This document shows positions 8,292 through 62,881 of a stretch of DNA of 64,000 nucleotides, one piece after another. Each line of letters opens with the position of its first letter. The stretch's first letter is position 1. The stretch spans positions 1,344,001 through 1,408,000 of the forward strand of contig CAWFQB010000001.1 of assembly GCA_963817895.1 (NCBI GenBank), given 5' to 3'. Both the position numbers and the translations under genes were made by a program. The notes under the pieces are model-generated. The model did not search any database. It was not told the DNA's origin and was given only the letters and a program-made list of their open reading frames with translations. This DNA comes from an uncultured Chthonomonadaceae bacterium (GTDB lineage Bacteria > Armatimonadota > Chthonomonadetes > Chthonomonadales > Chthonomonadaceae).

Positions 8292-8693
8292 TCAATCCAG
8301 AAACGCTTTCAGCGTTTCCAGTAAGGCGATTTCGTCTTTTAACTGGCACTCCCACACAACATGAACCCGCCAGCCCGCCTGCTCTAACGCGGCTATGTTG
8401 CGGGCGTCTCGTTCCCGGTTGCCGTCAATTTTCGGCGTCCAGTATTGCGTGTTGGATGTCGGGCGTATTTTGGGACGGCAGTCGTGGCCGTGCCAGAAAC
8501 AGCCGTGTATGAAAACGACTTTGCGCCTCCCCTGAAAAACCAAATCCGGTTTTCCGGGCAGGTCTTTTCTGTGCAGACGATACCGGTAGCCGTGATGATA
8601 CAACAGGCGGCGAACGCGTATCTCCGGGCCGGTGTTTTTTGACCGGACGGCGCGCATCGTTTTACTCCGTATCGCAGGGCTAATTTTATCCAT
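8292..8693 (-). CDS. vsr: Very short patch repair endonuclease
   Basis: RSKNTGPE, LPGKPD, FIHGCFWHGH, VWEC motifs. Confidence 0.95.
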   Translation of the reverse strand: MDKISPAIRSKTMRAVRSKNTGPEIRVRRLLYHHGYRYRLHRKDLPGKPDLVFQGRRKVVFIHGCFWHGHDCRPKIRPTSNTQYWTPKIDGNRERDARNIAALEQAGWRVHVVWECQLKDEIALLETLKAFLD

Positions 8694-42209: not shown

Positions 42210-43582
42210 TGGTCTTCAGACCATTGCATAGGCGGGTTTCCCCTCAACCTCCCGCATTGCCGGCTTTCGCCCGATGCAAACTCCAGTGATCAGGCCGGAG
42301 GTGAGGGAGATAATTTTCCGTTCCCCATCCGCAACGGTGTATATTGACATAGATATGCGATATGATGTAAGTATGAGCATGATTTGTGTCAAATACAGGC
42401 TGTACCCTACGCCCGCGCAGGAAACCAAACTGCGGCATACCTTAGACGTGTGCCGCGATGTTTACAACAGTTTTCTCCATGGGCGGGAGTACGGCTATGA
42501 AGTGAACGGCAAGGCGTCTACGGAACGCGAGCAAGAAAAATGCTTGCCGTCTGGAAACAGGCGCATCCCGAACTCGCGACGGTTCATGCCCATCTGCTGC
42601 AAAATACCGCCATCCAGGTCGAACTTGCTTTCCAAGCGTTCTTTCGGCGCGTCAAGAACGGGGAAACTCCGGGCTACCCTCGTAAGAAGGGGCGGGGACA
42701 GTACGACAGTTTCACCTTCAAGGAGTACGGCAACGGCTGCAAGTTGAACGAGAACAGCGTCACTCTCTCCAAGATAGGAACCCTCAAGGCGGTGGCGCAT
42801 CGCGTGGTCGAAGGCGTGTACAAAACCTGTACCATTCGCAGGCAGGGCGAAAAGTGGTATGCCTGCTTTGCGGTGGAAGTCCCGCCCGAACCGCTCCCGC
42901 CGTCCGAAGAAGCCATTGGCATAGATGTCGGCTTGAACCAGTTCGCGGCGCTGTCTAACGGCGAGTTTATCCCCAACCCCCGCTTTTTCCGCAAGGACGA
43001 AAAGGCTCTAGCAAAAGCGCAACGCAAGGTGGAGAAGCACAAGAAAGGCTCTCCGCAACAACGCAAAGCCCGCAAGGTCGCTCGCCGTATCCATGAGCGT
43101 ATTGCCAATCGAAGGCACGATTTCGTTCACCAGACGGCGCGAACACTGGTCAACCGCTTTGGATACATTGCGGTCGAAAAACTCACCGTCAAGAACCTGA
43201 GCAAGCGTCCTGCGCCTGGGCAGGACGCGGAAACGGGTGAGTTCTTGCCTAATGGCGCAAGCCAAAAAGCAGGATTGAACAAGAGTATTTTAGATGCCGC
43301 ATGGTCAATGTTCCGCAGGGTGCTTGTGTCGAAGGCTGAAAGCGCCGGACGCAAGTATGTGGAAGTCAATCCGGCTTATACGAGCCAGGACTGTTCGGGT
43401 TGTGGGTATCGCGCTAAGAAGAAACTGTCGGAACGCTGGCACTACTGTCCGATGTGTTCCCTGTCTCTCGACCGCGATACCAACGCGGCCATCAATATCT
43501 TGAAAACCGCTGTGGGGCTACACAGCGTTGCGGGTATACCCGCATAGAAGCCGCCGGGATTTATCCTGCGCGGAGTAGTCAC
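42210..43582 (+). mobile_element. Non-autonomous IS200/IS605 element (left end approximate)
   Basis: tnpB followed by a hairpin right end AAGCCGCCGGG..GGAGTAGTCAC. Confidence 0.7.
42373..43547 (+). CDS. tnpB: TnpB (IS1341-type, no tnpA); frameshift in the A-run at 42536-42540
   Basis: KYRLYPT, GIDVG, AVEKL, YTSQDCSGCG, CPMC, DRDTNAAIN. Confidence 0.92.
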
Positions 43583-47153: not shown

Positions 47154-48810
47154 CTAACTGCTATTACCCGGTTTGAGGATTTCCACCGGGGACTTGTCCT
47201 GTACCTGCGCCTGTCCCAGCGTGATGACCTGATCGCCCGGTTTCAGGCCCGACGTGACTTCAACGTCTTTAAGGTTGGCGTAGCCGACTTTCACTTTGCG
47301 CTCTTCAGCGACTTTGTTGTTGACCACGAACAAGCGTCCGGCTTTGCCGTCGTTGTCCAGAACGGCGTCGCGTGGCACAAGCACGACATTGCGATGCGTG
47401 TTCAGCGTAATCTCGCCCCGCGCGAACATCTGCGGGCGGAGTGTGCTGCCCTCATTGCGCAGGCCGATACGCACCGTGAAGTTGCGGGCGGCGGACGAGG
47501 CGACCGGGAAAATCTGCTTCACCGCGCCCTGAAACGTCCGGTTGGGAAACGCGCTCACGGTCACGGTTACAGTTTTGCCGGGAGTCACTTCGGCGTACAT
47601 AGATTTCGGGCAGTTGCGCGTCGAAATAGATGCTATCCAGCGCGACGAGCCGCATCACGCCGAATCCCGCCGCCACCTGCTGCCCCGGTTCCACCTTGCG
47701 CTCGGCCACTACGCCCTCAATCGGGGCGCGTATGGCGGCATCCGACAGAGCCTGCTGCGCAAGACGAACGGCAGCTTCGGCCTGCTGTATGCTGGCCTGC
47801 GCCTGCTGTACCCCCGCTTCCGCTGTTGTCACATCGGCGCGGCGCAAATTGACCTGACTGCGGTTCGCCTGCGCGGTAATGAGAGTTTGGCGGGACTGCT
47901 CGACTGTAGCTTCCGCCCGCGCCACATCCTCCGTGCGCGAACCCTCCTGCACCAGACTGAGATTCTCCTGCGCCGAGCGAATTCGCGCGTCCGCCGAGGA
48001 CACTTTGGCTTTGGCGGCGTTGACATGGGCAAGGCCGCTTTCCGAAACGGCCTGCGCCTGATCCAACTGCTGCGCGGGAATGGCGTTCTGCTTGAACAGC
48101 GATTGATAGCGCCGCAAATCGGATTGCGCCCGGTTGTAATCGGCCTGTGCGCTGGCAAGGTCGGCTACATTGCTTTCCCGATCCGCCTGCGCCTGCGACA
48201 CAGCCTGCTGCGCCTGCTGCCGCTCCTGCGTTCGCGCCCCGGTTTTCACCACTGCGGCGGATTGCTGCGCGGCGGTCAATCCTGCCTTTGCCTGACTGAC
48301 CGCGCTTGCCGTCTGCTGATCGGTCAGTTTTACGGTTGTTTGCGCATTGGAAAGCGTTTCGCGGGCCTGCGCCAAACGGGTTTGCGCCTGCCGTAGATTG
48401 GCGCGCTGCTGATCCAACTGCGCCGAAAAATCAGACACATCTTGCTGCACCACGACCGCGCCCCGATGCACCGTATCCCCCTCGCGGTAGTAGACAAAAC
48501 TGATTTTGCCCGCCAGTTTGGAGCCGACTGTCACATCGTTTTGCGCGCTCAACGCGCCCGTCACCTGCTGCGTTTGGGTAATCACGCCGGTTCGGGCGGA
48601 CATAACGCCTACCTGCGTGGCTGTGGGCGCGGCGGGTTTCGCCCCTGCGCCCTTCGCATCGGTTTTAGCCGCGTCGCCGCCCGGTTTACGGCATCCCGTC
48701 AGGCCAATCACGCCCGTTACGGCTACAATTCCAGCGAGGGCGCGAACCCGATTATGTGAATGTTTCATTGGTAAGTTTCTGAATAGGTTTCTGGAAAGGG
48801 TTGATTTCAT
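47154..48810 (-). CDS. Efflux periplasmic adaptor (membrane fusion protein); frameshift near 47605
   Basis: Lipobox LTGC, long coiled coil, IRAPIEGVV, LRPQMFA, GLKPGDQV. Confidence 0.88.
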
Positions 48811-50867
48811 TAGCGGCGTCCTCCCGTGGGCGTACTGCCTGTCACGCGGGGCGGGGGCGGAGCGGCAAATCCCGGCCCATTGTTCAGATACGCATAGCGG
48901 CCTGCCGCTTTGTCCAGCGTGGCACGCGCGTTGTTATAATCGTACAGGGCGTTGACCTGATTGTTTTCCGCAAGCGTGAGCGCGTTCTGCGCGTCGCTCA
49001 CCTCTACCAGCGTGGAAACGCCGTTGGTATAGCGGACGCGCGCCAGCCGGTAGCTTTCAATCGCCTGTCCGAGCGAAGCGTTGGCGACGGCAACCCGGTC
49101 ACGCGCCTGCAATAAATTAAGATACGACGTCCGAACATCCAGATGCACCGTATCTACGGCGGTTCGGCGGTTGGTTTCCGCAGTGGCGACATCCGCCCGC
49201 GCCTGCGTCACCCGCCCGCTGGAAAGCCCGCCGTCGTACAGCGGAAACGACAGCGCGACAACAAACGACTCGGTATCTGTCTGAGGTGAAAACCCGGCAG
49301 TATTAGGCGAGTATTGGGCGTTCGCGCTGAGATTGAGAACCGGCAGTTGACTGCGCCGCGCCAGCCGAATCCCTTTGCGGGCGGCGGCGATTTGCGCGTC
49401 CGATTCTAAAATTTCCGGGCGATTGACAAGGGCTTCCTGAACCACCGCCTGATACTCCGGCCCCAATACCTGCGACGCGGACACAATCACGGGCTGCCGC
49501 GTGGAACCGGTTCCCCCGGACGGCGGCAGTGTGGGATTTTGGGGAACTTCGGGCGGCGCGACGGGATTGGCGGGCAGAATGGCGTTTGGGTTCGCTCCCG
49601 TTGCGGGCGGCTGGCCGTTCGGGTTGATGTTTGCATCGGGCGGCAACACGCCGGGCGGGTCCAGTACGGCGTTGACGCTGGTGATGGACAGGGCCGTATC
49701 AATGTTCAGGCCCATATTGTTGTTCAATTGGCCCAGCGCGTTGTCCACATTGGCCTGTGACGCGATCACCTGCTGGCGGGCGTTGTTGGCATCCGTTTGC
49801 GCCCGGATCACATCGAACTGCGCCACCGTACCCGCCGCGAATTTAATTTGCGCGTCCCGCAGCCGATCTTCCGAATTGCGCAGGGTTTCCTGCGCCACCG
49901 TAAGAAGCCCCTGCTGGCGCAGCACGGCGTAAAACGCGGTCTTGGTGTCCAAAACGATCTGGTTGCGGGTTCGGTTGATGTCTATGCGCTGCGCCACTTC
50001 GAGGAACTGCGCCTGCCGCACGGCTTCGCGCAACAATCCCGCAATGTCAATGGGCAGCGACACGGACGCATTGAACACGGGCTGGTCGGCGTTGACAAAT
50101 GTAATCACGTTGCTTCCGCTACCCGTTGTTGTGGTTGTGCCGCCGGTTGTGGTTGTAGTTCCTCCGGTTGTAGTTCCTCCGGTAGTGGTACCCCCGGTGG
50201 TGGTTCCGCCTGTGGTTGTTCCGCCCGTTGTGCCGCCTGTTCCGGTAGTGCCGCCGGTTGTAGTTCCTCCGGTCGTGGTTCCTCCGGTTCCTGTGCTGCC
50301 GCCGTCGCCGGTAGTTCCTCCCGTTGTGGTTCCCCCGGTTGTGGTCGTTCCCCCCGTCGTTGTCGTTGTGCCGCTACTGCCGCCGCCGATGGCCGCGCTC
50401 TGGCTTCGGCTCAGGCGCGTGTAGGTAAATCCGCTGCTGACAGTGGGGTTGAACGCGGCGCGGGTTTCGGAAAGCCGCCCCTGCGCGCGCAGCAGGGCGG
50501 CGGTGGAAAGCGCCAGTTGGCGGTTGTTGGCAAGCGCGATGGCAACCGCGTCGTCAATGCTCAATGGCTGCGGCGGCACGCGCCCCGTCAATTGGTTCAA
50601 TCGGGGCGACGCCAGCAGCGGTTTATCCGGCTTTGGCAGGGGACTTGTCGGCGCGGGCAGGGGCGCTTGCAGTCCCGTTGGCGGCGGCGTGTTCGGAATC
50701 GTCGGGCCTGTTGTCGGTGTTTGTCCGCCCGGTATCGTGTTGGGTTGCGTCTGTGGAACGGGCGCGGCGGTCTGCGCCCCGGTTGCGGGCGCAAGTATCG
50801 GGATCGCCGCCAGACTCAGCATCCACGCGGCAGGCGCGAGTTGCGCAATTCTCATTTCAGTCCTCAT
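48810..50867 (-). CDS. TolC-family outer membrane efflux protein with Gly/Thr and Pro-rich insertions
   Basis: ALANNRQL, FPLYDGG, RYTNGVST..EV.DAQ; GGTTT repeats. Confidence 0.88.
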   Translation of the reverse strand: MRTEMRIAQLAPAAWMLSLAAIPILAPATGAQTAAPVPQTQPNTIPGGQTPTTGPTIPNTPPPTGLQAPLPAPTSPLPKPDKPLLASPRLNQLTGRVPPQPLSIDDAVAIALANNRQLALSTAALLRAQGRLSETRAAFNPTVSSGFTYTRLSRSQSAAIGGGSSGTTTTTGGTTTTGGTTTGGTTGDGGSTGTGGTTTGGTTTGGTTGTGGTTGGTTTGGTTTGGTTTGGTTTGGTTTTTGGTTTTTGSGSNVITFVNADQPVFNASVSLPIDIAGLLREAVRQAQFLEVAQRIDINRTRNQIVLDTKTAFYAVLRQQGLLTVAQETLRNSEDRLRDAQIKFAAGTVAQFDVIRAQTDANNARQQVIASQANVDNALGQLNNNMGLNIDTALSITSVNAVLDPPGVLPPDANINPNGQPPATGANPNAILPANPVAPPEVPQNPTLPPSGGTGSTRQPVIVSASQVLGPEYQAVVQEALVNRPEILESDAQIAAARKGIRLARRSQLPVLNLSANAQYSPNTAGFSPQTDTESFVVALSFPLYDGGLSSGRVTQARADVATAETNRRTAVDTVHLDVRTSYLNLLQARDRVAVANASLGQAIESYRLARVRYTNGVSTLVEVSDAQNALTLAENNQVNALYDYNNARATLDKAAGRYAYLNNGPGFAAPPPPRVTGSTPTGGRR

Positions 50868-51147
50868 GGGGCGCGTCCTCCGGCAGGACGCGCCCGGTTT
50901 CTTTGTCGTCGCGCTCCGCGTGTTCCAGCGTGGCGAGCATCTGCGTCATAAACTCGCGCACGGAAGCGAGGGGCAACAGCACAATGCCTTTGCCGGAGGG
51001 ATGGGTCATAATCATCAGTTTGTCGCCGGGCTGAATCGCCAGGTCTTTGCGCAGGTCGGCGGGTATGACAATCTGGCCCCGTTCGCCAACGGTCGCCGTG
51101 CCATAAAAACACTCGTCCACTTTTCCTGTTCGGGTTTTTTCCGCCAT
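50857..51147 (-). CDS. AbrB/MazE/SpoVT family DNA-binding protein
   Basis: ATVGERGQIVIPADLRK.L.I.PGD. Confidence 0.9.
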   Translation of the reverse strand: MAEKTRTGKVDECFYGTATVGERGQIVIPADLRKDLAIQPGDKLMIMTHPSGKGIVLLPLASVREFMTQMLATLEHAERDDKETGRVLPEDAPHED

Positions 51148-51183
51148 AACTGCTCTTCCCTGCTTCGCAATTTTCCGTGTCTC

Positions 51184-51215
51184 AAAGTATGACATTTCAT
51201 ACTTTTCATACTTTT
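51184..51215. promoter_or_regulatory. Candidate operator upstream of the AbrB-tolC-MFP operon
   Basis: AAAGTATGA/TCATACTTT inverted pair plus a TTTCATACT direct repeat. Confidence 0.45.
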
Positions 51216-51383
51216 GTTCCTGTGTCATGGTTATTTACGCTTCGTCAACCTGTGAAGTTGCAAAATAAGTTAAGCCGGGTGAACGCGGCAAATTTTAGAT
51301 ACGCCGGCCCTGTCCCTCATCCCTGCTTGACACACGCGAACCTGTCTGCCATAATAACGCGACAGAACTTTACCTGAAACACC

Positions 51384-52691
51384 ATGACAAATCACGAATT
51401 TTCAACCGAATTTCCCGGCGGCGAAGACTGGCGCAATGCTGCCATCAATTACGCCATCAAAATGGAAGCCGCCGATGGCGAAGGCATGGACGCGCTGCTG
51501 TACGCTATCCGGCTACAGCGTCCGGGCGGCGCGACCCTGCTGCTGTGGCACGACCGCCTGCGCTTGAAGCAGTTCCTCGAAACCTCCGCGCAGCAGTTCG
51601 AGTCATTGCTTCCCGGCGACGACGGGCATATCGAGCGCGCGGAAACCTGTCCCTATGTGGCGTGGTACGCCGTGACGTGGGAAGAGGAGCGCATTGAAAT
51701 CGCCCTTCCGCCCGGAACCTACATCAGCACGGGTTCGGTCTTGATGGGCCATGACCCGCGCTTATTGCGCCGGTTCGCCGATGCTTTGGAAGCGTTCGCG
51801 CTGCGTCCCGCCGGTCGCAGTCTGCGCTACTCGCAGGGTTGGGAAAGCGCGCCCGATCTGGACGCCGAAATGGGTAAAGTGACGTGGGACGATGTGATTC
51901 TGGCTCCGAAGATTATGAGCGGCGTGCGTGAAGCCGTCGAGGGATTTTTCCAGCATCAGGACGCTTTCGAGGCGTTGGGCTTCCCGTGGCGGCGCGGACT
52001 GCTGCTCGTCGGCCCGCCCGGAACCGGCAAAACCATGATCTGCAAAGCCGCCGCCACCGCAATGGACAAGCTGCCGTTTCTCTATGTGCGCGATTTCAGT
52101 TCCGGCAACCACGCGGACGCCGTAGAAGTTATCTTTGAACGCGCCCGCAAACTGTCGCCGTGCCTGCTTGCCTTCGAGGACATTGATGGACTGGTTACGC
52201 AGGGCAACCGCACCGTGTTTTTGAACGAACTGGACGGCTTCCAGAACAACAACGGCCTGCTCATCATCGCCAGTTCCAACCATCCGGGCAAAATAGACGA
52301 GGCGCTGCTCAAACGCCCGTCGCGCTTTGACCGCGTGTTTCACATCGGAATGCCCGCCCTTGCCGAACGCCGCGCGTATTGCGAACGCCTGCTGTCGCGT
52401 TCCACGCTTGCCGAACGCCTGTCCCCCGATCTGGATATTGGCAACCTGTCGCAGGTGGTTGCCGAATGGACGGACGGCTTCACGCCCGCGTATCTAAAAG
52501 AGGTCTTCATTTCCGCCGCCCTGCGTCGGGCGCAGGCAGGCGCGACCACGCTGGACGAGGATTTCCACAACACGGTCATAGATCAGGTCGAGGAACTGCG
52601 CAAGCACCTGCGCCGCGTCCAAAAGCCCGACGAAATGGGCGAGTTCACCAACCCCGAAAGCGAACGAATGGGCCTACGCGGTAAAGATTAA
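51384..52691 (+). CDS. AAA+ ATPase
   Basis: GPPGTGKT, FEDID, SNHPGKIDEALLKRPSRFDR. Confidence 0.9.
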   Translation: MTNHEFSTEFPGGEDWRNAAINYAIKMEAADGEGMDALLYAIRLQRPGGATLLLWHDRLRLKQFLETSAQQFESLLPGDDGHIERAETCPYVAWYAVTWEEERIEIALPPGTYISTGSVLMGHDPRLLRRFADALEAFALRPAGRSLRYSQGWESAPDLDAEMGKVTWDDVILAPKIMSGVREAVEGFFQHQDAFEALGFPWRRGLLLVGPPGTGKTMICKAAATAMDKLPFLYVRDFSSGNHADAVEVIFERARKLSPCLLAFEDIDGLVTQGNRTVFLNELDGFQNNNGLLIIASSNHPGKIDEALLKRPSRFDRVFHIGMPALAERRAYCERLLSRSTLAERLSPDLDIGNLSQVVAEWTDGFTPAYLKEVFISAALRRAQAGATTLDEDFHNTVIDQVEELRKHLRRVQKPDEMGEFTNPESERMGLRGKD

Positions 52692-52749
52692 CTCGCCTGC
52701 CTGCGGTAAAGTTTTGTTACAGTAATCCATCAGGTCAGAGGAGAAAACG

Positions 52750-53541
52750 TTGAATCTGACGGAATTTATAAGCAGTTTATCCCCGGCTGACAGTCAGGCG
52801 CTTCAAGAGCGTCTTGATGTTTTGTCGCGTCACAATTTAGGCCGTCAGTTTGTCATTAACCTGAAAGCGGAGGCGCGGTTTACCATTGCTATTTGGCAGA
52901 CACTCCATCAAACTTTCCTTAACGCCTCACCCGACCCTGACAGTCTGCGAACAGCATTTATAGACGCCTTTCGTCCGTACATATTAAATGGCGGTTCAAT
53001 TCCCACACCTTGGCCCACTCACTATGGACGCGCCACGCCGGAGAACATTTTTGCTGACCTACTCGTAAAACAGGGCAAGGCGACTTCACGCACAGCGGCA
53101 AAACGCTTCCTCAGGAATCTAATGTCAAAGTCCCTACCAATAGTCCAGCAAAGATTAGCGCACAAAGAAATCGGCCAGTATATGATATGGGCGACGTTCA
53201 ACGAAGACAACCCAAATGGCGACCCTTTTGAAAAATTGCCGGATGATGCGGAAGGCATCCGGGCCGGCCTCGGCTTGGACCCCAATTACACCGGCGACAT
53301 GATTTTACTGACCTACTACTTGCCTGTTGGAGTGGAACCTTTGTATCCAACCGTTGCCGATGGTTACTCTAGTGGCTGGAACTACTATTATCGTCCTTCC
53401 TATACGGATGAGCGGTATGGCAGAACTTTATGCTGGCTTGGACGCGCCGATGTGTCCCCTTGCCCGGAAGTGGTTCATAAGCCTGTGACCGGCGATTGTT
53501 TGCTCGCTCCCATAGCAAAGGCGAAAGAGAAACGAATATGA
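52750..53541 (+). CDS. Hypothetical protein, possible ART/NADase-like fold
   Basis: GAGGAG RBS, TTG start; WATF, LGL, PTVAD, YRP..YGRT, PEVVH. Confidence 0.6.
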   Translation: MNLTEFISSLSPADSQALQERLDVLSRHNLGRQFVINLKAEARFTIAIWQTLHQTFLNASPDPDSLRTAFIDAFRPYILNGGSIPTPWPTHYGRATPENIFADLLVKQGKATSRTAAKRFLRNLMSKSLPIVQQRLAHKEIGQYMIWATFNEDNPNGDPFEKLPDDAEGIRAGLGLDPNYTGDMILLTYYLPVGVEPLYPTVADGYSSGWNYYYRPSYTDERYGRTLCWLGRADVSPCPEVVHKPVTGDCLLAPIAKAKEKRI

Positions 53542-54371
53542 GTCCACTTACAGATGAAAACGGCAAACTGGATTTGGCAGCCGTTGAAAATTTAAGTGAA
53601 TCTGAACTACGCGATTGGATATTTGCGCGTCTGCATAGTCAGGATATGCTTGTTCCCGGCGGTTTTGGTCGAGCCGAACTGCCACATTTTTTGCTGACGC
53701 AAATCTATCCACAACTCAGCCGTCCTGCGCGTCAGGATATGGAAAATATCGTTGAGGACTTTGTACGTAAAATGGCGCGTCACAATGAAAGCGAATGGCA
53801 GGGTGACGCAGCGGATGAATTGCTGTTACTGGCGCAGACGGTTTGCGGCGGCACAACCATCAATCAAGCCGTAATTGGCTACATTGAGGAAATGGCGCAA
53901 TCGTTAAACTTCTTCAATGCCGATAATGACGGGCAGATAGACTTGCATTACCGTCTGCTGCAAAGTCTGGTTGCGCTCGGTTGGCGTGGAAGGCCGGAGT
54001 TTTGGCGTGAACAGGTACGCCGTGCCTCGAAACGATATACAGGTGTTGCTTTTAGTGGCCTTGCGCTGATAAGCCCTAAAGAAGCGGTCGCGCTGCTAAC
54101 GGAGATCGAATGGTCGGACGCGGTTGAGGATCAGATTTTCACCAATCTGCCGGACTTTTTAGAGGAGTACCAGATTTCCTGCGTCCTGCCCCTGTTTCAG
54201 CGTTATCTTCCCGCCATGCGAGAACGGACACGAGCCGCTATTTGCGGCTACATGGCTGAAGAGGGAATTCCGCTGGCATTGACAACTGTGACAAGTACAA
54301 AGTATGAACCACATAGAGACTTTTTTCGCAAGCGTGATTTGCCAATCACGCTAGAGCATGCGGCTACCTGA
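53538..54371 (+). CDS. Hypothetical all-helical protein
   Basis: 277 aa; ATGA and TGATG overlaps with its neighbours. Confidence 0.7.
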   Translation: MSPLTDENGKLDLAAVENLSESELRDWIFARLHSQDMLVPGGFGRAELPHFLLTQIYPQLSRPARQDMENIVEDFVRKMARHNESEWQGDAADELLLLAQTVCGGTTINQAVIGYIEEMAQSLNFFNADNDGQIDLHYRLLQSLVALGWRGRPEFWREQVRRASKRYTGVAFSGLALISPKEAVALLTEIEWSDAVEDQIFTNLPDFLEEYQISCVLPLFQRYLPAMRERTRAAICGYMAEEGIPLALTTVTSTKYEPHRDFFRKRDLPITLEHAAT

Positions 54372-56521
54372 TGCTAACCACGAACTTCCGTCCCAAACGC
54401 AAAACCGTATTTTACACCTTTTACTCGTTCAAGGGAGGCGTGGGCCGTACCATGTCTCTGATTAACGTGGCCTGCATCCTCGCGGCGCGTGGGCGGCGCG
54501 TCCTGATGATTGACTTCGATCTGGAAGCGCCCGGTTTGACGAATCTTGCCCTCCGAGATATTGCCGTCGAAGCCGACAAACAGCGCGACGGCCTTGTAGA
54601 ACTGATTCAAGATTTTGTAGATGCTCCTGAAAATTCTCCCTTAGCCGATGAAACCAATCGCGCACCCTTCTTCGACAAGTATGTTCGCCAACTTCAAATA
54701 CCCGACACGCTCGAACCCTTGGAGGGCGGCAGCCTGCACCTATTGCCCTGTGGACGCATAGACGCCACGTATACGGAACGCCTGTACGCCATTGACTTCA
54801 AGCAACTTTATGCGGAGGGAGTTGGGCAGCCGCTGTTCAAGTATCTGAAAACCTATATTCGTGACGCGGAACGCTATGATTACGTCCTCATAGACTCCCG
54901 CACGGGCTTTTCGGACGAGGGCGGCATTTGCACCCGCGACCTTGCCGACCACATTTTCATTATTACCGGCCTGAACCGCCAGAACATTGACGGCACGGTT
55001 CAGTTCCTGCGCCAACTGGAAGCAAGCGGCTGGCAGGAGGGTCAACTCGTCTTCGTCGCCTCCCCCGTTCCCACCGGCCTTGAAGAACTGCGCGATCAGC
55101 GCATCAAAGCAGCAAAAGCAGCGATTGAACAAACCCGCTTCAAAGCCGATTTCAAACTGCGTATTCCCTACCATCCCCGTCTTGCCCTTGACGAAGAGCC
55201 ATTCGTTTATCGCTGGTCGGATACTGACTTATTCCCCTCATACCAGAGCATCGCGCGTGTTCTAAGAGAAATAGTTGATGACACGCCTTTAGTATTGAGT
55301 CAGGAAATCACTGAGGCAATGAATCAGCAAAAGTATGATGAAGCACTATCCATACTTCATCAGTTAATTGCAGAGGAACATGAGGTCGGATTAAGTGTAC
55401 TAACCTCCGTAACTGCTGCAATGGCAGATTCCCCTCACATTCTGCTGGATAAAGCCATACCTTTCTTTGAGATGTTAATTCAGCAACGCAATGTGGCAGA
55501 GCCACACAGACTTTATGCAAACTATCTTAGAAATATTAACAAGTTGCCGGAAGCGCTTGAACAGCTAAATGTCGCGCGAGAAATGTTCGTCAATCGAAAA
55601 GAGGTATCTCAAACCGCTTATGTTTTAATGGATGTTGGGATTATCAATAGCAGACTCGGCGAACCTAATGTAGCGTTAGAGAACTACAGGAGTGCTGACG
55701 AACTATTTACGAGAACCAATAATGATTTAGGATCAGCAACGGTTCGCCTACTTCAAGGTATAAACTATGCCGAAGGCGGGAATTTACAACAAGGATTGTC
55801 ATTAGCTGCAACTGCCGTGGAAATGCTGCGAGGTGTCGGTAATAAATTGGCGTTATCTAATGGTTTAGTACATTACGGTTTCATACTGTTATTAAAAGGT
55901 GAATATTCTTCTGCGTTCGCAGTGTCTAATGAGGCATTGCTTATCAGCCGCGAAATTAGATTGCCCCCGCATACTGCACAGACTTGTGAGTTGAAAGCTA
56001 AAATTCTTCTTGAACAAAAAGAGTATGATGCGGCTATACCTTTATATGATGAAGCCCTACAAGGATATACTGCTATAAACAATTCCATAGGATTAGCTTC
56101 TATCCGTACTGATAGGGGCTATATTGATGTTCAACAAGGAGACGAAAGAGGGCTGGAACAGATAGAAGACTCGGTTCAGTTTTACCATAATACAGGCGAA
56201 TACGGTAGAAGTTCAGGGGCGCGTACTACGTTTGCCGAGGCTTTATTCAGTATCAGCGTACACAGGTGTAATGAGTACATAACTAATCAATGGGAGTACA
56301 TACAACATCATGCAGTCTGTTACACGCGTTATAGACTATACGTTCTTCGCGCCAAAGTAAAGGCCGTGCTTGGCGATAGGCAAGGCGCAGCCGAAGATGC
56401 TCAGATTGCGGTTGACTTTTACCGTGAGCAGGGCGTTCATACACTTTTGGCGCAGGAAGCGGAAAAACTGGCAAAGTTAAACGTTGCGCAAGATGCTGAC
56501 GTAAAAATAAACGCCTCGTGA
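54371..56521 (+). CDS. ParA/MinD-like KGGVGR-motif ATPase fused to TPRs
   Basis: FYSFKGGVGRT, IDFDLEAPGL, YDYVLIDSRTG; TPR-like helices in the C-terminal half. Confidence 0.88.
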   Translation: MLTTNFRPKRKTVFYTFYSFKGGVGRTMSLINVACILAARGRRVLMIDFDLEAPGLTNLALRDIAVEADKQRDGLVELIQDFVDAPENSPLADETNRAPFFDKYVRQLQIPDTLEPLEGGSLHLLPCGRIDATYTERLYAIDFKQLYAEGVGQPLFKYLKTYIRDAERYDYVLIDSRTGFSDEGGICTRDLADHIFIITGLNRQNIDGTVQFLRQLEASGWQEGQLVFVASPVPTGLEELRDQRIKAAKAAIEQTRFKADFKLRIPYHPRLALDEEPFVYRWSDTDLFPSYQSIARVLREIVDDTPLVLSQEITEAMNQQKYDEALSILHQLIAEEHEVGLSVLTSVTAAMADSPHILLDKAIPFFEMLIQQRNVAEPHRLYANYLRNINKLPEALEQLNVAREMFVNRKEVSQTAYVLMDVGIINSRLGEPNVALENYRSADELFTRTNNDLGSATVRLLQGINYAEGGNLQQGLSLAATAVEMLRGVGNKLALSNGLVHYGFILLLKGEYSSAFAVSNEALLISREIRLPPHTAQTCELKAKILLEQKEYDAAIPLYDEALQGYTAINNSIGLASIRTDRGYIDVQQGDERGLEQIEDSVQFYHNTGEYGRSSGARTTFAEALFSISVHRCNEYITNQWEYIQHHAVCYTRYRLYVLRAKVKAVLGDRQGAAEDAQIAVDFYREQGVHTLLAQEAEKLAKLNVAQDADVKINAS

Positions 56522-56557: not shown

Positions 56558-57340
56558 ATGCGTTTTGTGAGACAAAATTTGTTAGCGTGTATTCTGCTCT
56601 GCGTTTGCTGTGACGCGGCCCTTGCCGCGCCGCCGAACCTGAAGCCTGCGCGTTCTGCGCCCATCGCGCCTTCCGCTTCCGCCAACATCAGCCTTGCCGC
56701 CCTGTTGCCGCCGGGACGGTTTCGCGCCGATGTGATGCAGCCGGAACCCTCGCCGCGTCTCGCCCAACTGAGCCGCAAGATGCAGGAGGGCATCCGCAAA
56801 AATCCCCAGTGGTTTATGGCGGAAATCCAGAAAGTGAAACCGGGCGAGAATATTCCCTACGATGCGCGATTGAACCTGACGCGGGAAGAGTACAATCTGT
56901 TGAACCATCCGGCTCCGCAGATGCAATTGCGCAGGGTGGGTGGTGGTCTGATTACGATTTGGAGTGTGGGAACCCGGCGCGTGTTGACCGGCGTGGGAAC
57001 GCTGTTCGGATTGAACGGCATTGAGATTGATCTACAGCGGCAAAGCGTGAAAACCCTGCTTGGCGTTTTGAACGCCCCAACGCCAGTGAAAGCCAATACC
57101 AGCCAGTCCGCAGACGCCACATGGAACGGTTTCGCGTGGAAACTGGATACGATGGCGCATAAAGAGACGCCCTCGCAGATGACAGGCACAATCGCTGAAT
57201 TCACGTTGGGCAAACTGGTAAAATCCGGGCGTATCCAACTCACCTACAAAGCGCAACAGATGAACGGCGGTAAGCCTCAAAGCAATTTCGCCTACCTGCT
57301 GCACTACACTGCGCCTCCGCAATTCCCACGCAGACATTAA
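56558..57340 (+). CDS. Hypothetical exported protein
   Basis: 260 aa with signal peptide. Confidence 0.7.
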   Translation: MRFVRQNLLACILLCVCCDAALAAPPNLKPARSAPIAPSASANISLAALLPPGRFRADVMQPEPSPRLAQLSRKMQEGIRKNPQWFMAEIQKVKPGENIPYDARLNLTREEYNLLNHPAPQMQLRRVGGGLITIWSVGTRRVLTGVGTLFGLNGIEIDLQRQSVKTLLGVLNAPTPVKANTSQSADATWNGFAWKLDTMAHKETPSQMTGTIAEFTLGKLVKSGRIQLTYKAQQMNGGKPQSNFAYLLHYTAPPQFPRRH

Positions 57341-57413
57341 CCCATTTTCATTGCGCATCCGGTTGTTCGCGGCATGGAACTTTGCCCGCTTCTGCCGCAT
57401 ACAAATATTGTAG

Positions 57414-57438
57414 GTAGGGCGGGGGCTTGTCCCCCGCC
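57414..57438 (+). repeat. GTAG-type REP palindrome
   Basis: GTAG-GGCGGGGG-cttgt-CCCCCGCC. Confidence 0.55.
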
Positions 57439-57476
57439 GATAATGTGATGGCGCACAGAAGCGGGAGTAAAAAAGG

Positions 57477-58433
57477 ATGAAGGTTTTTGTGGCGGGGGCG
57501 ACGGGCGTGTTGGGGCGGGCGCTGCTGCCGTCTCTTGTGGCGTTGGGGCATGAGGTGTATGGCATGGGGCGGACGCCCGAAAAAGTTCTGGCCGTCGCGC
57601 AAATGGGCGCAACGCCCGTTCGCGCCGATGTTCTGGATGCCGCCCGCATTGCCCGCGCGGTTGGCGACGTTCAGCCCGATGCCATTGTCAATCTTGCCAC
57701 GTCCATACCGCTGAAACTGCGCGTCAATCTCGACCACTGGAAAGAGAATGACCGGGTGCGTCTGGAGGGTTCGCGCAATCTGCTTGCGGCTGCCAGAAAC
57801 GCCAACCTGCGCCTGTTCGCGCAGGCAAGCGCGGATCAGGTGTGCGAAACGCAGGGCGACGGCTGGATAACCGAAACTTCGCCGCGCAGTTCCCACGCTT
57901 TTCTCCACGCCACGCAGGAGATGGAAGACCGGGTACGCGCGTCCGGCCTGCCCGCCACCCTGCTGCGCTTTTCCGTCCTGATGGCCGCTGATTCATGGCA
58001 CACGCAGCAAAGCGTCACGGCCCTGAAACGCGGCTTATTGCCTGTCATTGGCGACGGCAGCGCGTTTGTCAGCATGGTTCATGTCGCGGACGCGGTTCAG
58101 GCCATTCTCCTCGCCCTGCAACAGCCGGAACTCGCAGCCGGACAAACCTTCAACGTCGCGGACAACGAACCCGCCCGGATGCGCGACATTCTCCCCTACG
58201 CCGCCCAACTCCTCCACGCGCAGCCGCCCCGAACCGTGCCGCCCCTGATGGCGAAAATGGTAGTCGGCGCGCTGACTATTGACGTGCTGACCCAATCCCA
58301 CCGCATGAGCAATGAGAAAATCCGCCAGACCCTCGGCTTCGCCCCGCAATACCCCACCTACCGCGAATCATGGTCACAAATCGTCCGCGAAATCGGCGCA
58401 AGCGACTTTGCCGCCTCCGATGATTTGAAATAA
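57477..58433 (+). CDS. NAD-dependent epimerase/dehydratase family protein
   Basis: VFVAGATGVLG, HVADA, FNVAD. Confidence 0.9.
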   Translation: MKVFVAGATGVLGRALLPSLVALGHEVYGMGRTPEKVLAVAQMGATPVRADVLDAARIARAVGDVQPDAIVNLATSIPLKLRVNLDHWKENDRVRLEGSRNLLAAARNANLRLFAQASADQVCETQGDGWITETSPRSSHAFLHATQEMEDRVRASGLPATLLRFSVLMAADSWHTQQSVTALKRGLLPVIGDGSAFVSMVHVADAVQAILLALQQPELAAGQTFNVADNEPARMRDILPYAAQLLHAQPPRTVPPLMAKMVVGALTIDVLTQSHRMSNEKIRQTLGFAPQYPTYRESWSQIVREIGASDFAASDDLK

Positions 58434-58565
58434 TAGCGAAGCGCGCTTCCTGTTCTGCGCGCGGCGCGAAAAAATGAAAACCTTTCCATTTAGAAGTGTT
58501 GGTCCTGTATAGCGAAGGTTTTGGAGGCATAAAGGAGAACGCTGTGTTGACGGCGTACTATGCCT

Positions 58566-58656
58566 TGTCGTGTGAGGATGGAAACACCTCTTTGCAGAAG
58601 AAATACACACCTGCGGAAAGTTGCACCCGGCAGAAATGTCGGGTGAGGATGGAAAC
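58566..58656 (+). CRISPR. Degenerate CRISPR-like mini-array, left part (half repeat, 34-nt spacer, full repeat)
   Basis: Full repeat 58620-58656 GTTGCACCCGGCAGAAATGTCGGGTGAGGATGGAAAC; 58566-58585 matches its last 20 nt at 19/20. Confidence 0.65.
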
Positions 58657-58876
58657 CTGTGCGGCGCGGTCGTATCTGTCCGATGGGCGGCGCAAACCTT
58701 ATCCGGTCTGGCGATGCAGGGCTGATCAGCAGCAGCACGACAAAGACGGGCTTTTGCCATACTGTCAAATTGGTGCAGTCGCCTGGCAGCGGTGTCTGGA
58801 AGTGCGCGGCAGGCAACGAGCGTGATGCCGGCGCGACTTCGGATCGAGACCTCTCTTCAATGGTCGTCATTCGACC

Positions 58877-60009
58877 TTACAAAGATTGAACACCTGAACA
58901 GCTGAACCAAGCCCCTCCTTGCAGAGTTTCGCAGGAAGGGGCTTTTTGTTGTTTGCGATAAGTTGGGTGGCACTTGAGTAAATGACAATTATAACATTGT
59001 ATCAGTAAGTGCTGTTCTACAGTCATACCAAGATGGCGGCAAATAGGGCTCAGCTCCTTATCGGTCAAAGGCCATCTGGCTTTGGCCTCAACCCTATTCG
59101 AGGAGACATAAAAGTATACATACAGTACCGCAGCCAGGCGCATAACATAATTTTCGTCGTAGTCTTTACAAATATCATTGTAAAGAGCTGGGCGCCTAAC
59201 GAAAAACTGCTTTACTTGCTCCACATCCAAATGTTCAGGATCAGCGCCCAACTCCTTTAACAACCACACGCTAGTCTTCGTATCCTGAATGGGTTCTTTA
59301 TGAACTCCCTCAGAATATAGGATATTAAGCTGTTCAATTGTGTGGCTTACGTTTCTGTGCATTCGATTTACAATGTCTGCTGACCTCTGAAACACATCTT
59401 CAGTAGCTTCAAGCAGTGCCATACTTCTTGCCAACGCTCGCCGAATAGGGGATCTCCTACGGCGGATGGTTTATAAACCGTATCGTGTGACATCTCACTG
59501 TACGCATGCTGCATTAAGGTTCGAACTTGGATTTCGCATGGGGTACCGGCTGGAATTGATACTTCCTCATACACATGAGGGGCCTGCAGCCTCACAATGT
59601 AATGATCTGATTGATAATCAAAGACTGTGGGATAACGTTCCCTGTCCTCAGCGAATTCTCGTGATTGTTCCCACGACCAAATCGAGGAATTTTTTATGGC
59701 GTTACCTACTATCTTTGTATCTTCGAGCAGTAAAACAACAAAGCGAACACCCACTTTGTCAAGAACGTCCTTGTACGGATCGGCAAAGTTCATGCCTCGA
59801 AAAAAGGCCTTCGCAACAAAGGAATTTGGATCCTTGACGCGGGGCGATGGAGGTATCCGCAAGAAAGCATTGATAGGTTGAAGTGAAGGTAGTTCACCAC
59901 GGAGTTGATCGGATACCTCTTTGACAACCAAGTGGCCCAGGGCATTAAAGATACCCCATTCTGCTGCAAAACGTTCCTTAGCTTCTTCCGGCGTCATGAC
60001 TTGATCCAT
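58877..60009 (-). CDS. RelA/SpoT-type small alarmone synthetase-like protein; frameshift near 59450
   Basis: RVKDPNS, DKVGVR, YQSDH, EIQVRT..QHAYSEMSHD..YK; continues as RRALARSMALLE in the 58877-59434 frame; no hydrolase domain. Confidence 0.85.
58909..58947. terminator. Hairpin at the 3' end of the island operon
   Basis: AAGCCCCTCCTTGC...GCAGGAAGGGGCTTTTT. Confidence 0.55.
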
Positions 60010-61108
60010 TCACGGGCCTAGTGGTATCGCCCTTCTCAGTCAGGAAACCCCGGATTTTGATGAGTGTGTAGCCCTCATCGTTGGAGATGACTTCTAATAG
60101 GTCCTCAAAGCCTGTTGACGGGGCTGTAATTACTACCTTTGAATTGAAGTTAAGGAAGCGTTTGCTCAGTTTCCCAGCCACGACGTTTCTATCAATTACT
60201 ATGTCGATGTCTGGGAATTCCTTCTCCCCCATTTCATTGACGTATTGGCCCCGAAAGTTTTCGGGAAGATAGGCAGCAAAATCTGCCACATTGATTCTAC
60301 TACGAACAGGGTCCTGTAAATAGGAATACAAGAGTGTACTAATTTCTACTTTTTCTCTGTCCGAGATGGACAAGTTGAGTATGTGAGATTGGGTAAGATT
60401 ATAAAAATCTCCTGTCAATTTTCTCGAAATTTTTGCTACCGTGCATCCCATAAAGGATTTATAGAAATATTGGGCCATCCCATCTGTGGAAGTACGGGTT
60501 ATATGATGGTCATATATAATCGCTCTGAAATCGTCGGTGAAACGAAGCTCGCCCTCTGGCCCATCAGGTCTTGTTTCTTCTACAAATATTCCTATTTTGT
60601 AGAGCTTTTGAGTCGGTGTGAGAAACATTTGCTTTATATGCTGCATTTGCTCTACCAGAGCTGAACCATCACTTAGTTGCGCAGATGTCGAAAAGCCTTC
60701 ATGCAGCTCGCTCTTCATCACACAAATAAAACGCTTGTCTTCATCACCAGTTGTACCGGATAGTACCAGAACATATCCATCAGGAATTTTGCCTGATGTT
60801 TGCACACTCTCCAATCTTTGGACAAGTTCACGATTGAGCCTGATAAACTCGATGTCATTACAGGCAATCATCTTTGCGCACATCTGGAAAGTAGATCCTT
60901 CGCCATCATTCTCGATATCCATTTCAACGCAATGGGAATTTGATCGAAGGTATTCCGTAAGCCGCTGTGTGACGGTTCGCAGCAGCTCTCTATTTAGCAT
61001 AGAGGGTGCATCTGCGCATAGTCTATAGTATCCCTGACCACCATCTTGACGTTTTGCTAAGAGACTTTCTGTGATGCGGTGGATTTGTAGATTGCTGAAA
61101 AGACTCAT
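59978..61108 (-). CDS. NA37/NdpA(YejK)-like nucleoid-associated protein
   Basis: 376 aa; FICVMKSELHEG, FLTPTQKLYKIG, YD, AQYFYKSFMGC, KLTGDFY pattern. Confidence 0.65.
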   Translation of the reverse strand: MSLFSNLQIHRITESLLAKRQDGGQGYYRLCADAPSMLNRELLRTVTQRLTEYLRSNSHCVEMDIENDGEGSTFQMCAKMIACNDIEFIRLNRELVQRLESVQTSGKIPDGYVLVLSGTTGDEDKRFICVMKSELHEGFSTSAQLSDGSALVEQMQHIKQMFLTPTQKLYKIGIFVEETRPDGPEGELRFTDDFRAIIYDHHITRTSTDGMAQYFYKSFMGCTVAKISRKLTGDFYNLTQSHILNLSISDREKVEISTLLYSYLQDPVRSRINVADFAAYLPENFRGQYVNEMGEKEFPDIDIVIDRNVVAGKLSKRFLNFNSKVVITAPSTGFEDLLEVISNDEGYTLIKIRGFLTEKGDTTRPVNGSSHDAGRS

Positions 61109-61135
61109 GGTGTCATCCTATTGGCAGCTTGATTG

Positions 61136-61726
61136 CTAGTTGTTGTCCGTAGCTTCTATTGCGTTTTGATCAGTTTTGTCCGGCTTCAAAGGTGAGTAGC
61201 CAGAAGCTTTAGCAATAGTGCTTGAAAATAAACGATTAGATACTACTGGTGATTCTTTGGCTAAGGCGTCCATTTGCTTTTGAATGCCGTCAAGGTAAGC
61301 TTTAGGTTTGCCGCGACTGACAGGAAGCAAAGCCGCTGTTTTTTCCAAATCCCTTCGTATCGCTGCGTAATGCGCTGCAGACGCTCGATGCTTTTCGGCG
61401 CGTTCTGATAGCTTAAGAAAAGTTTGGAGACTTGAGAGAAAGGCTGAGGTAAGAGTGAGAAAGGCCATAACATAAATTCCTCTATCACCCCAACTTTTAA
61501 TGATATTAGTCACAGCGCCAACGCCGGCGAAACTAGAAAAGATAATTGCGATTATTCCTAGCCCCTTGTGCCATTTGTCATTTGATTCGGCAGCAGCATA
61601 GTGTGTAAGTTGTTGATCCCGTACGCGCCTGTGCCAATTTGTTATTACATGATCAACTGCTGCCCATTCACTCTCAAGGGAAGTATCTGAAGGTTTCGCT
61701 AAATCTTCGGACAACGTTTTACTCAT
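61136..61726 (-). CDS. SLATT-family 2TM effector
   Basis: HYAAA...LGI, two TM helices, LQTFL..SERAEKH..SA..Y..IRRDLE; GAGGT RBS. Confidence 0.8.
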   Translation of the reverse strand: MSKTLSEDLAKPSDTSLESEWAAVDHVITNWHRRVRDQQLTHYAAAESNDKWHKGLGIIAIIFSSFAGVGAVTNIIKSWGDRGIYVMAFLTLTSAFLSSLQTFLKLSERAEKHRASAAHYAAIRRDLEKTAALLPVSRGKPKAYLDGIQKQMDALAKESPVVSNRLFSSTIAKASGYSPLKPDKTDQNAIEATDNN

Positions 61727-61794: not shown

Positions 61795-61998
61795 CTACCC
61801 GCTGGAAGCAATCGCTGCTTTCTTGCCTCTCCCGCCCTTCAGCTTATCGCGCTTACGGAACTTTTCGATATCCTCACTGTTCAGGCACACGTAAGGAACG
61901 CCCTCGACCGGCTTCAGTCAGCCCTGGCGAATGGCCGCGTAGATGCGTTCACGCGACACGCCCACTTCTTCTGCCGCTTGTGAAACTCTCAATAACAT
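61795..61998 (-). pseudogene. Excisionase-like HTH protein with in-frame TGA
   Basis: GAGGTG RBS; MLLRVSQAAEEVGVSRERIYAAIRQG*LKP (TGA at 61918-61920). Confidence 0.7.
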
Positions 61999-62036
61999 TG
62001 TCTTCACCTCGTTTGAATAATGTACCCTAAACCTGT

Positions 62037-62535
62037 TCACAATCGCAAACAATTTGTTGCAGTGTGTCTGATTACAAGCCGCATAGTCGCTCCTGCCCCT
62101 CCCTCAAACAAGCCGTGTGAACCCCTGTGTAAGACTTCTCTACTGTAACTACATCCAGAGACATCATTCAGATGATTTTCTTTTCGGCTTTGCGTTGGAA
62201 GCAGGTGACTGCTACAGCACCTTGCGAGCGGATTGGCGGCAGTATGATCGGCGCGCACTTGGTCGGGGGCGGCGTGAAGATAGCCCATTGTGGTTTCGAG
62301 CCGGCTGTGTCCTAAAATACGGGCGGCGCTAACGACGTTGGTTTTGGCGATCTCCGTTGCCGTGAAATGGCGCAGGGAGTGGCGGGTGTAGTAAGGCAGG
62401 CCGGCAAACTCCAGGTAGAGATTCATGCGCTTCTTGGCGCTGTCTTTGTCTAAGGGCAGGCCGCCTTCGGACAGCAAGAGGGGGGCGTTTTTGAGTTGCG
62501 GACGGATTTTCAGTCATTTCTTGACGGCGAGTACC
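62037..62535 (-). pseudogene. Tyrosine integrase C-terminal remnant
   Basis: HSLRH..AT, ILGHS.LETT..Y; N-terminal part missing. Confidence 0.85.
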
Positions 62536-62576
62536 CACATTTGTGGCTGGTGTTGGATGCTAACGAGGTTATGAAA

Positions 62577-62635
62577 TACGCCTGGTTGGATTCGAGCCAA
62601 CGGCCTCTTGCTCCGGAGGCAAGCACTCTATCCAC
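62577..62635 (-). other. 5'-truncated tRNA-Arg(CCG) fragment, probable att site
   Basis: GTGGATAGAGTG-CTTGC-CTCCGGA-GCAAG-AGGCC-GTTGG-CTCGAAT-CCAAC-CAGGCGTA; 5' acceptor strand absent, T-loop TTC changed to CTC. Confidence 0.75.
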
Positions 62636-62751
62636 ATTGCACCCGACAGAAATGTCGGGTGAGGGTAGAAACATAAAGGGCGTCAGGCTGTCCACAAACT
62701 TATTAACGCTTATTGTGAAATAAGCGTAGCATGGTCGCCAGGGATTGAAAC
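62636..62751 (+). CRISPR. Degenerate CRISPR-like mini-array, right part
   Basis: 62636-62672 ATTGCACCCGACAGAAATGTCGGGTGAGGGTAGAAAC (33/37 to the left repeat), then a remnant ending GGATTGAAAC at 62751. Confidence 0.6.
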
Positions 62752-62801
62752 TCCCTGCCTGCACAAAGCAAGCGTCCCTCAAACGCGGGAATCTTGATTG
62801 A

Positions 62802-62881
62802 GAATTGCGTCTGAAAGACGCTTGTACTTTCCTGCCGGGGAAAGAGATTTAATCTGAAATCCCCGGCCCTTTAGGATAGGC
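62802..62881. repeat. Partial copy of the MITE-like element at 44474-44567
   Basis: GCGTCTGAAAGACGCTTG.ACTTTCCTGCCGGG...CCGGCC...GGATAGGC shared. Confidence 0.7.

Follow-up and report, generated by a model that had tools for sequence, protein, structure and literature searches.

The closest described relatives of the locus analyzed here, three genes at positions 58877 to 61726 of a 64,000-nucleotide stretch of DNA from an uncultured Chthonomonadaceae bacterium (contig CAWFQB010000001.1; the whole stretch is called the window, and all coordinates refer to it), are the PANGU systems, two-gene antiphage operons built around a YejK-like nucleoid-associated protein (NAP) and reported in April 2026 (bioRxiv 10.64898/2026.04.06.716658). 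What is said of PANGU below follows the available excerpts of that preprint. In type I PANGU, the NAP (Pag1A) is encoded with Pag1B, a toxic small alarmone synthetase (toxSAS) of the GRel family in which an N-terminal synthetase domain (toxSYNTH) is followed by a helical linker and an acidic, DNA-mimicking C-terminal domain; in the accessible part of another report, gRel is a gamma-proteobacterial group of small alarmone synthetases (PMC3153485). Several type I (Cluster 1) operons also encode a SLATT protein, whose presence the excerpts note. The trio in the window is probably a divergent, horizontally acquired type I PANGU member in this three-gene SLATT form.

In an uninfected cell, according to the same preprint, the NAP occupies the chromosome and the synthetase exists as an inactive tetramer. 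Degradation of the host DNA by T4 nucleases frees the NAP, which binds the C-terminal domain of the synthetase to give an active 2:1 complex, and this complex converts ATP and GTP, GDP, or GMP to AMP and (pp)pGpp. A tyrosine of the G-loop, Y129 in the published synthetase, is required for defense. The two-gene operon without SLATT was sufficient for defense; no construct was toxic and the synthetase alone was inactive, and a DNA-binding mutant of the NAP turned the pair toxic. The systems were found in more than five phyla, and those tested came from F. futtsuensis, P. aeruginosa, and E. coli. Candidates were delimited by a NAP of IPR007358/PF04245 with at least 300 aa, a match to the authors' own hidden Markov model at E < 1e-10, an effector gene less than 40 bp away, and known defense genes within 10 kb (bioRxiv 10.64898/2026.04.06.716658).

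Gene order and domain architecture of the trio

The list of open reading frames (ORFs) placed three co-oriented genes on the minus strand of 58877-61726, in the order SLATT, NA37-like protein, RelA/SpoT synthetase. The gene of a SLATT_4 membrane protein (61726..61136, 196 aa) is separated by 27 bp from that of a YejK/NA37-like NAP (61108..59978, 376 aa), and the latter overlaps the synthetase gene on the same strand by 32 nt. The synthetase gene is spread over an ORF at 60009..59368 (213 aa) and another, in a different frame, at 59434..58877 (185 aa). GC content was 0.43 to 0.47 over 59000-61499 versus 0.54 to 0.64 in the flanks. On the 3' side of the point at which homologous genes end lies a hairpin (58944..58909, minus strand) of 14 bp, with a 10 + 4 bp stem in the centroid fold; the z-score of the whole 91-nt stretch was only −1.66, no T-run follows this hairpin, and the terminator scan did not call it. 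ORF coordinates, GC content, and fold agree with an earlier, sequence-only reading of the locus, which had described an AT-rich, co-oriented trio with a 27-bp gap, then an overlap, and a terminal hairpin.

The profile searches proposed in that reading placed all three families above their cutoffs. The SLATT protein was called by PF18186 (29.4 bits; cutoff, 27) and NF033632 (105 bits; cutoff, 55), and its best PADLOC match was the "2TM effector" model PDLC00712 (E, 5e-15); we take models of this name to represent effectors of cyclic oligonucleotide-based antiphage signaling systems (CBASS). A hydropathy scan of this protein gave a clear hydrophobic segment at residues 54 to 77 followed by a weaker second one, and the SLATT domain occupies residues 28 to 167 of 196, with a net charge of +4 and a pI of 9.25 for the protein. 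The NAP matched PF04245 (E, 2.4e-10; 40.7 bits; cutoff, 24.6), and its AlphaFold model (predicted local distance difference test score [pLDDT], 77) had Escherichia coli YejK (PDB 9be2) as its sole significant PDB match (E, 1.4e-6; next match, E 1e-2). At the sequence level, a PDB search with a profile of the window NA37 subfamily gave no match to YejK (E ≤ 0.01). The first part of the third gene matched RelA_SpoT (PF04607; E, 2.2e-11; 44.4 bits; cutoff, 27), and family scans of the trio proteins found no hydrolase domain in the synthetase. No CD-NTase or SMODS cyclase came up when the four ORFs were scanned with PADLOC and Pfam, which gave only the 2TM effector models and RelA_SpoT.

Set beside the preprint's delimitation as the excerpts give it, the window NAP has 376 aa, and its PF04245 match (E, 2.4e-10) lies at the border of E < 1e-10. 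The effector gene is not merely close but overlaps the NAP gene by 32 nt, an arrangement shared by 83 of 90 related loci, and alignment and model give the effector a synthetase domain, a helix, and a helical C-terminal domain. The catalytic residues of the published type, including the G-loop tyrosine, are present.

The synthetase

The catalytic N-terminal part of the synthetase is read in frame A (59449..60009, minus strand). In an alignment of 11 sequences, the window synthetase and ten intact partners, the four core motifs (R57/K59/S63, D84/G87/R89, Y132/S134/H136, and E159/Q161/R163/T164) fall in invariant columns. Every invariant catalytic column is kept at 35 to 44% identity to the partners, so that the alignment and the family scans bear out the statement of the sequence-only reading that all four motifs are retained without a hydrolase domain. 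The G-loop tyrosine is Y132 in the window protein, which has four extra N-terminal residues. In a search of the PDB with the synthetase family profile, RelQ, RelP, and YjbM matched at E values of 1e-15 to 1e-11 and a 373-aa RelA/SpoT protein (7ztb) at 2e-5; no PANGU structure was present in the PDB copy searched with the family profiles. Entries 7ztb and 9erv are presumably CapRel-SJ46. The profile is nearer to the (p)ppGpp-making RelQ/RelP/YjbM enzymes and therefore fits the published product. That product is pppGpp in the preprint excerpts, and not the (pp)pApp or modified tRNA that the sequence-only reading had named for toxic small alarmone synthetases.

The remainder of the protein, a helical linker and C-terminal helical domain, is read in frame B (59006..59434, minus strand). 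The whole of this piece could be aligned with the C-terminal halves of nine homologues, with conserved ARSMAL.E..D, WPL, and DLGI motifs. Its model consists of a helix at residues 2 to 44 and a compact helical domain at residues 52 to 134 (pLDDT, about 90), and a comparison of the C-terminal domain with PDB folds gave no match (best E, 1.6). Prediction of a complex of two NA37 chains with frame-B residues 1 to 143 gave a median score of 0.20 against a mark of 0.32, without controls, and was used neither for nor against the assignment.

The frame break

The sequence-only reading had noted a frameshift near position 59450 and proposed to check it in reads. In tblastn alignments with 12 intact homologues, residues 1 to ∼182 mapped to 59997..59449 and residues 186/189 to 331 to 59434..59006 in the −1 frame. 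The break is therefore mapped between 59449 and 59434; frame A reaches its end at 59449, a position from which frame B is readable. The alignments leave the window exactly one residue short between ...YKPSAVGDP and IRRALARSMALLE, and this one unaccounted residue implies that one base is missing at or beside the C4 run at 59451-59448, which places the break at 59447..59451 (minus strand). The frameshift thus stood and was narrowed to a few letters, but the read check did not bridge the site. Among public data, one soil-metagenome run held 17% of the sampled words of the locus; its contigs cover 59448-59719 and 59917-60297 with no bridge over the break. One 151-nt contig from the soil metagenome aligns up to the C-run and no farther, leaving six letters unaligned, which is compatible with another run length and proves nothing. 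No RNA data were listed among the public holders of words of the locus.

Frame B continues for 42 codons (58877..59005, minus strand) that have no counterpart in homologues: all nine aligned homologues end 2 to 10 residues past LG(I/M), and the tail spans the hairpin and was modeled as disordered (pLDDT, <50). Both other frames stop within a few codons, so the sequence near 59000-59015 may contain another small lesion or error.

The genome, in 14 contigs, is 81% complete; another genome of the genus, in 3 contigs, is 97% complete. Further genes of the window look split as well: an MFP/HlyD efflux gene (47154-48810), a DAHL and GGDEF-EAL signaling gene (12732-15555), and two IS605-type TnpB genes (42274-43547 and 21587-22701). 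The completeness, the contig number, and at least four split genes suggest indel errors in the assembly. We put the chance that the synthetase frame break is real rather than an assembly error at roughly even or slightly below. In this genome the locus is either inactive or misassembled at the break point. Programmed frameshifting was rejected, since frame B is reached from frame A by a −1 shift, whereas the C-run would favor +1, which leads into a frame that stops after about 14 codons. A match to an Rfam frameshift element at 60640-60714 was likewise set aside (26.6 bits versus a threshold of 53, and in the wrong gene).

The NAP-synthetase pair and its SLATT partner in related loci

Relatives of the NAP were collected by an exhaustive HMMER search, a word-index search having given just two homologues. 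At E ≤ 1e-3, the exhaustive search yielded 637 representative clusters, and the top match other than the protein itself had 36% identity. Related loci were fetched with a 12-sequence alignment, a 52-sequence NA37 alignment having been set aside for want of a sufficiently conserved stretch for the locus search, and partner synthetases were sought with a profile from 12 partner proteins. The 90 loci obtained came from 14 genome, 23 metagenome, and 53 viral contigs, and the 86 with near-full NA37 genes represented 72 distinct sequences.

A synthetase ORF lay directly 3' of the NA37 gene, overlapping or abutting it, in 83 of the 90 loci. It was about 325 to 335 aa long where whole, and some of the others ended at a contig end. 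Five of the seven loci without a downstream synthetase had <130 nt of downstream DNA, and two held NA37 fragments only. The synthetase gene was disrupted in 5 of the 83 loci, by an in-frame stop (L018), by splits accompanied by a split NA37 gene (L073 and L091), by an interruption of ∼1.1 kb (L010), or by truncation (L020). Such disruptions fit a costly abortive-infection effector, and some of the breaks may be sequencing errors.

By the titles of the genome contigs, the hosts belong to the Bacillota, Verrucomicrobiota, Actinomycetota, Ignavibacteriota, Spirochaetota, Cloacimonadota, and Pseudomonadota. Many related loci are on viral contigs or beside type I restriction specificity genes, and an Ochrobactrum plasmid carries the NA37-synthetase pair. 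The window NA37 had no match among INPHARED phages, and two pairs from viral contigs had none in E. coli genomes. Of 300 other genomes sampled from the phylum, 2 had NA37 relatives, and of 17 from the family, none did; the PANGU-type family thus reaches a lineage in which it is rare, and does so on a small, decayed integrative island.

The survey of gene neighborhoods that the sequence-only reading had called for was run for SLATT with two home-made profiles on six-frame ORFs of the 90 loci, and with NCBIfam and Pfam on 20 upstream ORFs. SLATT and the NA37-RelA pair do co-occur elsewhere, since a SLATT gene was attached to the pair in at least 6 of the 90 loci. It was upstream and of the SLATT_1 type in L009 and L024 (E, about 1e-21), upstream and of the SLATT_4 type in L048, L050, and L062 (E, about 1e-29), and downstream of the synthetase and of the SLATT_1 type in L078 (E, 2e-22). 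The Klebsiella pneumoniae plasmid NZ_CP092398.1 has the order of the window, with products annotated as "DUF4231 domain-containing protein" (SLATT_1; E, 8e-26), "nucleoid-associated protein," and "RelA/SpoT domain-containing protein." Gaps between SLATT and the pair ranged from −4 to 27 nt; five of the six SLATT proteins are basic (pI, 8.5 to 9.9), and there is almost no sequence beyond the SLATT domain. On a quick maximum-likelihood tree of NA37, the SLATT label requires at least three changes, which suggests repeated recruitment, with the placement of the long-branched window protein not fixed. The occurrence of SLATT proteins from two subfamilies, in two positions and tightly coupled to the pair, favors a real, repeatedly acquired functional link. 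SLATT is a genuine member of the operon and most likely an accessory membrane effector, and its recurrent recruitment from two subfamilies in two positions makes the third component worth an experiment.

Probable assignment to type I PANGU and alternative explanations

The sequence-only reading did not recognize the trio as a named system, and that view is superseded: the system is already described in the preprint, whose excerpts include the SLATT-bearing form among type I operons. The sequence statements of that reading, namely, its domain calls, operon structure, and island context, were all borne out. The gene identities, architecture, conserved pairing, recurrent SLATT linkage, and island context were established here; for sensing, activation, and product we infer from the preprint excerpts. 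By that analogy, the YejK-like protein would reside on the chromosome until a phage nuclease degraded the host DNA, whereupon the freed NAP would bind the helical C-terminal domain of the synthetase. An inactive oligomer would be converted to an active complex that pyrophosphorylates GTP, GDP, or GMP at the expense of ATP, and NTP depletion and (pp)pGpp would together halt transcription and translation and abort the infection. Control of the synthetase by the NA37-like protein in a defensive role, as had been proposed from the sequence, agrees with the published experiments on the gene pair. The proposed sensing of phage DNA or protein does not, because in the published system it is the detachment of the NAP from a host chromosome degraded by phage nucleases that acts as the trigger.

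Membership of the window locus in the type I PANGU family is, in our estimate, likely. Several points weigh against it. The assignment rests on architecture, context, and distribution, with the tested Pag1A and Pag1B sequences and the GRel references outside the comparison, and PADLOC v2.0.0 lacks a model of the NA37 partner and matched the synthetase only weakly (PDC-S33). The acidity of the C-terminal domain is mild (net charge of −4 and pI of 5.9 over 143 aa; −6 to +1 in nine homologues). The window NAP shares 28 to 37% identity with its relatives and has a branch length of 1.68 on the family tree. Of 47 highly conserved columns, it differs from the consensus in 9, including the near-invariant H15, whereas the median for 52 sequences is 3. 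The effector is not encoded in an uninterrupted frame, given the break and the unmatched 42-codon tail, and the neighboring integrase is truncated to the final ∼70 residues of the PF00589 domain (28.9 bits; cutoff, 27.1).

Several of these points can also be read as the remains of a former PANGU-type system that is now dead, its frame break real and its island decayed. We regard this as quite possible, although somewhat short of probable. Beyond the break with its tail, it is favored by the reduction of the integrase to its last residues and of a tRNA to a 3' fragment, by the long branch and altered columns of the NAP, and by the disruption of the synthetase in 5 of 83 related loci. However, the break amounts to a single base at a homopolymer in an assembly that looks indel-rich, the SLATT and NA37 ORFs are whole, and all catalytic residues are kept; the soil contig that stops at the C-run would suit another run length, without proof. 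That whole SLATT and NA37 genes persist here could also mean that they act without the synthetase. In such an arrangement the freed NAP would open SLATT directly, as the NAP does with the transmembrane effector Pag2B that it binds in type II PANGU, and SLATT and the synthetase would be two parallel effectors. This is improbable, since Pag2B as described in the excerpts carries an acidic DNA-mimic domain, whereas the window SLATT is basic (net +4; pI, 9.25) and its domain, at residues 28 to 167 of 196, leaves scant room for another.

SLATT could instead act downstream of the synthetase, the alarmone being a second messenger that opens a SLATT pore under control of the NAP, much as in a minimal CBASS with a RelA/SpoT enzyme standing in for the cyclase; the sequence-only reading had considered such triggering of SLATT. 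Repeated recruitment of SLATT from two subfamilies at gaps of −4 to 27 nt is in keeping with such a cascade, as are the best match of the window protein to "2TM effector" models without a separate sensor domain and the basic pI (8.5 to 9.9) of five of six SLATT proteins, which would suit a polyphosphate ligand. If it were true, (pp)pGpp would be, beyond a metabolic poison, an immune signaling nucleotide in a sensor-synthetase-pore cascade analogous to CBASS. We consider it rather unlikely, because two-gene PANGU defends without SLATT according to the preprint excerpts, 84 of the 90 loci have no attached SLATT gene, and no ligand-binding site was identified on SLATT. Far less plausible is a toxin-antitoxin module of the toxSAS type, with the NA37-like protein as the antitoxin that neutralizes a toxic synthetase, a role that the sequence-only reading had also allowed. 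The two genes overlap, and small RelA/SpoT synthetases are toxins in several toxin-antitoxin families, as the accessible part of one report has it (10.1101/2021.04.30.441581). The published pair, in contrast, does not behave in this way: its synthetase is inactive alone and is activated rather than neutralized by the NAP, its constructs are nontoxic, and it was a DNA-binding mutant of the NAP that made the pair toxic. A divergent type I PANGU operon with SLATT thus remains the reading that we prefer.

The island and its neighborhood

The trio lies on a 4-kb island whose DNA had no match in 60 relatives, while its left flank (56729-58437) is ∼75% identical to same-genus genomes. Just upstream of the trio and on the same strand are a 44-aa xis-like helix-turn-helix ORF (61918..62052; HTH_17 E, 1.3e-3, below the cutoff) and the C-terminal remnant of a tyrosine integrase (62037..62477; PF00589 positions 102 to 170 of 172), as the sequence-only reading had stated. 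A whole integrase gene is excluded, because just ∼520 nt separate the xis-like ORF from a tRNA fragment. This fragment (62574..62635, minus strand; ∼60 nt) aligns to the 3' part of a genuine tRNA-Arg(CCG) elsewhere on the same contig, and ARAGORN called no tRNA at its position. Abutting the right repeat described below and lying beside the integrase remnant, the fragment looks like the relic of an integrative element that targets tRNA-Arg.

The island is bracketed by direct repeats of 36/37 nt, at 58620..58656 and 62636..62672 (both plus strand; 33 of 36 positions identical), the right copy abutting the tRNA fragment. Each bears a hairpin with a 9-bp stem, and a half-copy lies at 58566-58585. 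None of 100 shuffles gave any match, and the genome holds just two full copies. Single-copy relatives with compensatory stem changes were found in 4 of 41 genomes of the family, and in two genomes the relative sits right before a start read as that of IF-3 (infC). The repeats may be att sites or a 5' untranslated region element. A CRISPR array was rejected: the match to Rfam CRISPR-DR9 (40 bits) is below the threshold of 45, there are two copies in the genome, and no cas genes were noticed in 44 to 64 kb.

Two nucleotides past the left repeat begins an ORF for a 76-aa, Cys-containing protein (58659-58889, plus strand) with a GAGG motif ahead of the GTG start codon. This ORF and the synthetase gene run toward each other, the ORF overlapping the tail of that gene, and PADLOC gave no match for it. 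To the right of the island, a palindromic element of ∼100 nt (62737-62839) is one of many copies on both strands of this and related genomes, at 78 to 88% identity.

About 2.4 kb to the left of the island is a second low-GC operon of four genes (51384-56521, plus strand). It encodes an AAA ATPase with IetA-like PADLOC matches (E, 7e-16), a 716-aa ParA-like ATPase-TPR protein with a KGGVGR motif (NF047398 E, 9e-44; PDC-M28B E, 2e-23), and two ORFs without a family. These PADLOC matches are to candidate-system models only, so that for the PANGU preprint's filter of known defense genes within 10 kb the neighborhood supplies candidates. The operon possibly belongs to the ParA-based immunity systems surveyed in another preprint (bioRxiv 10.64898/2026.10.19.760177). 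A MazE-like ORF (50857-51228) lies on the opposite strand. The region has the look of a small defense island. Farther away on the minus strand, a C-5 cytosine DNA methyltransferase gene (8693-9868; PADLOC MTase_II E, 6e-79) and a 471-aa ORF without a family (10031-11446) stand side by side and may form a restriction-modification pair.

Comparison with known systems

The NAP of the window shares its fold and Pfam family with E. coli YejK (PDB 9be2) but differs in sequence (14% identity in the structural alignment) and in being encoded in an operon on a mobile island and not as a housekeeping protein. As in CBASS and SMODS/SLOG systems, a SLATT protein with two transmembrane segments is encoded beside a nucleotide-producing enzyme of the Pol-beta fold, and the 2TM effector models match; however, the trio has a pyrophosphokinase in place of a CD-NTase or SMODS cyclase, and its conserved third partner is a nucleoid protein. 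With CapRel, a fused toxSAS, the trio has in common a RelA/SpoT synthetase with a C-terminal regulatory domain and a place in antiphage abortive infection. It differs in the weak profile match (E of 2e-5 for 7ztb against 1e-15 for RelQ/RelP-type enzymes) and in that CapRel has no NAP partner and, as far as the preprint excerpts describe it, senses phage proteins and modifies tRNA (bioRxiv 10.64898/2026.04.06.716658).

Type II PANGU (the NAP Pag2A with Pag2B) likewise sets a nucleoid-protein sensor beside a small membrane protein. As described in the excerpts, Pag2B has its acidic DNA-mimic domain at the N terminus, whereas the basic SLATT protein of the window consists almost wholly of the SLATT domain and has a synthetase as its companion; the mostly basic SLATT proteins of the related loci do not resemble Pag2B either. 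Type I PANGU, in the same excerpts, is the nearest in kind. The window locus departs from it in a NAP with at most 37% identity to its relatives, in the frame break and the extra tail of the synthetase, and in the rare lineage that carries it. It agrees with type I in the gene pair, its order and translational coupling, the ∼330-aa layout of the synthetase, the G-loop tyrosine, the distribution over many phyla and mobile elements, and the optional SLATT gene.

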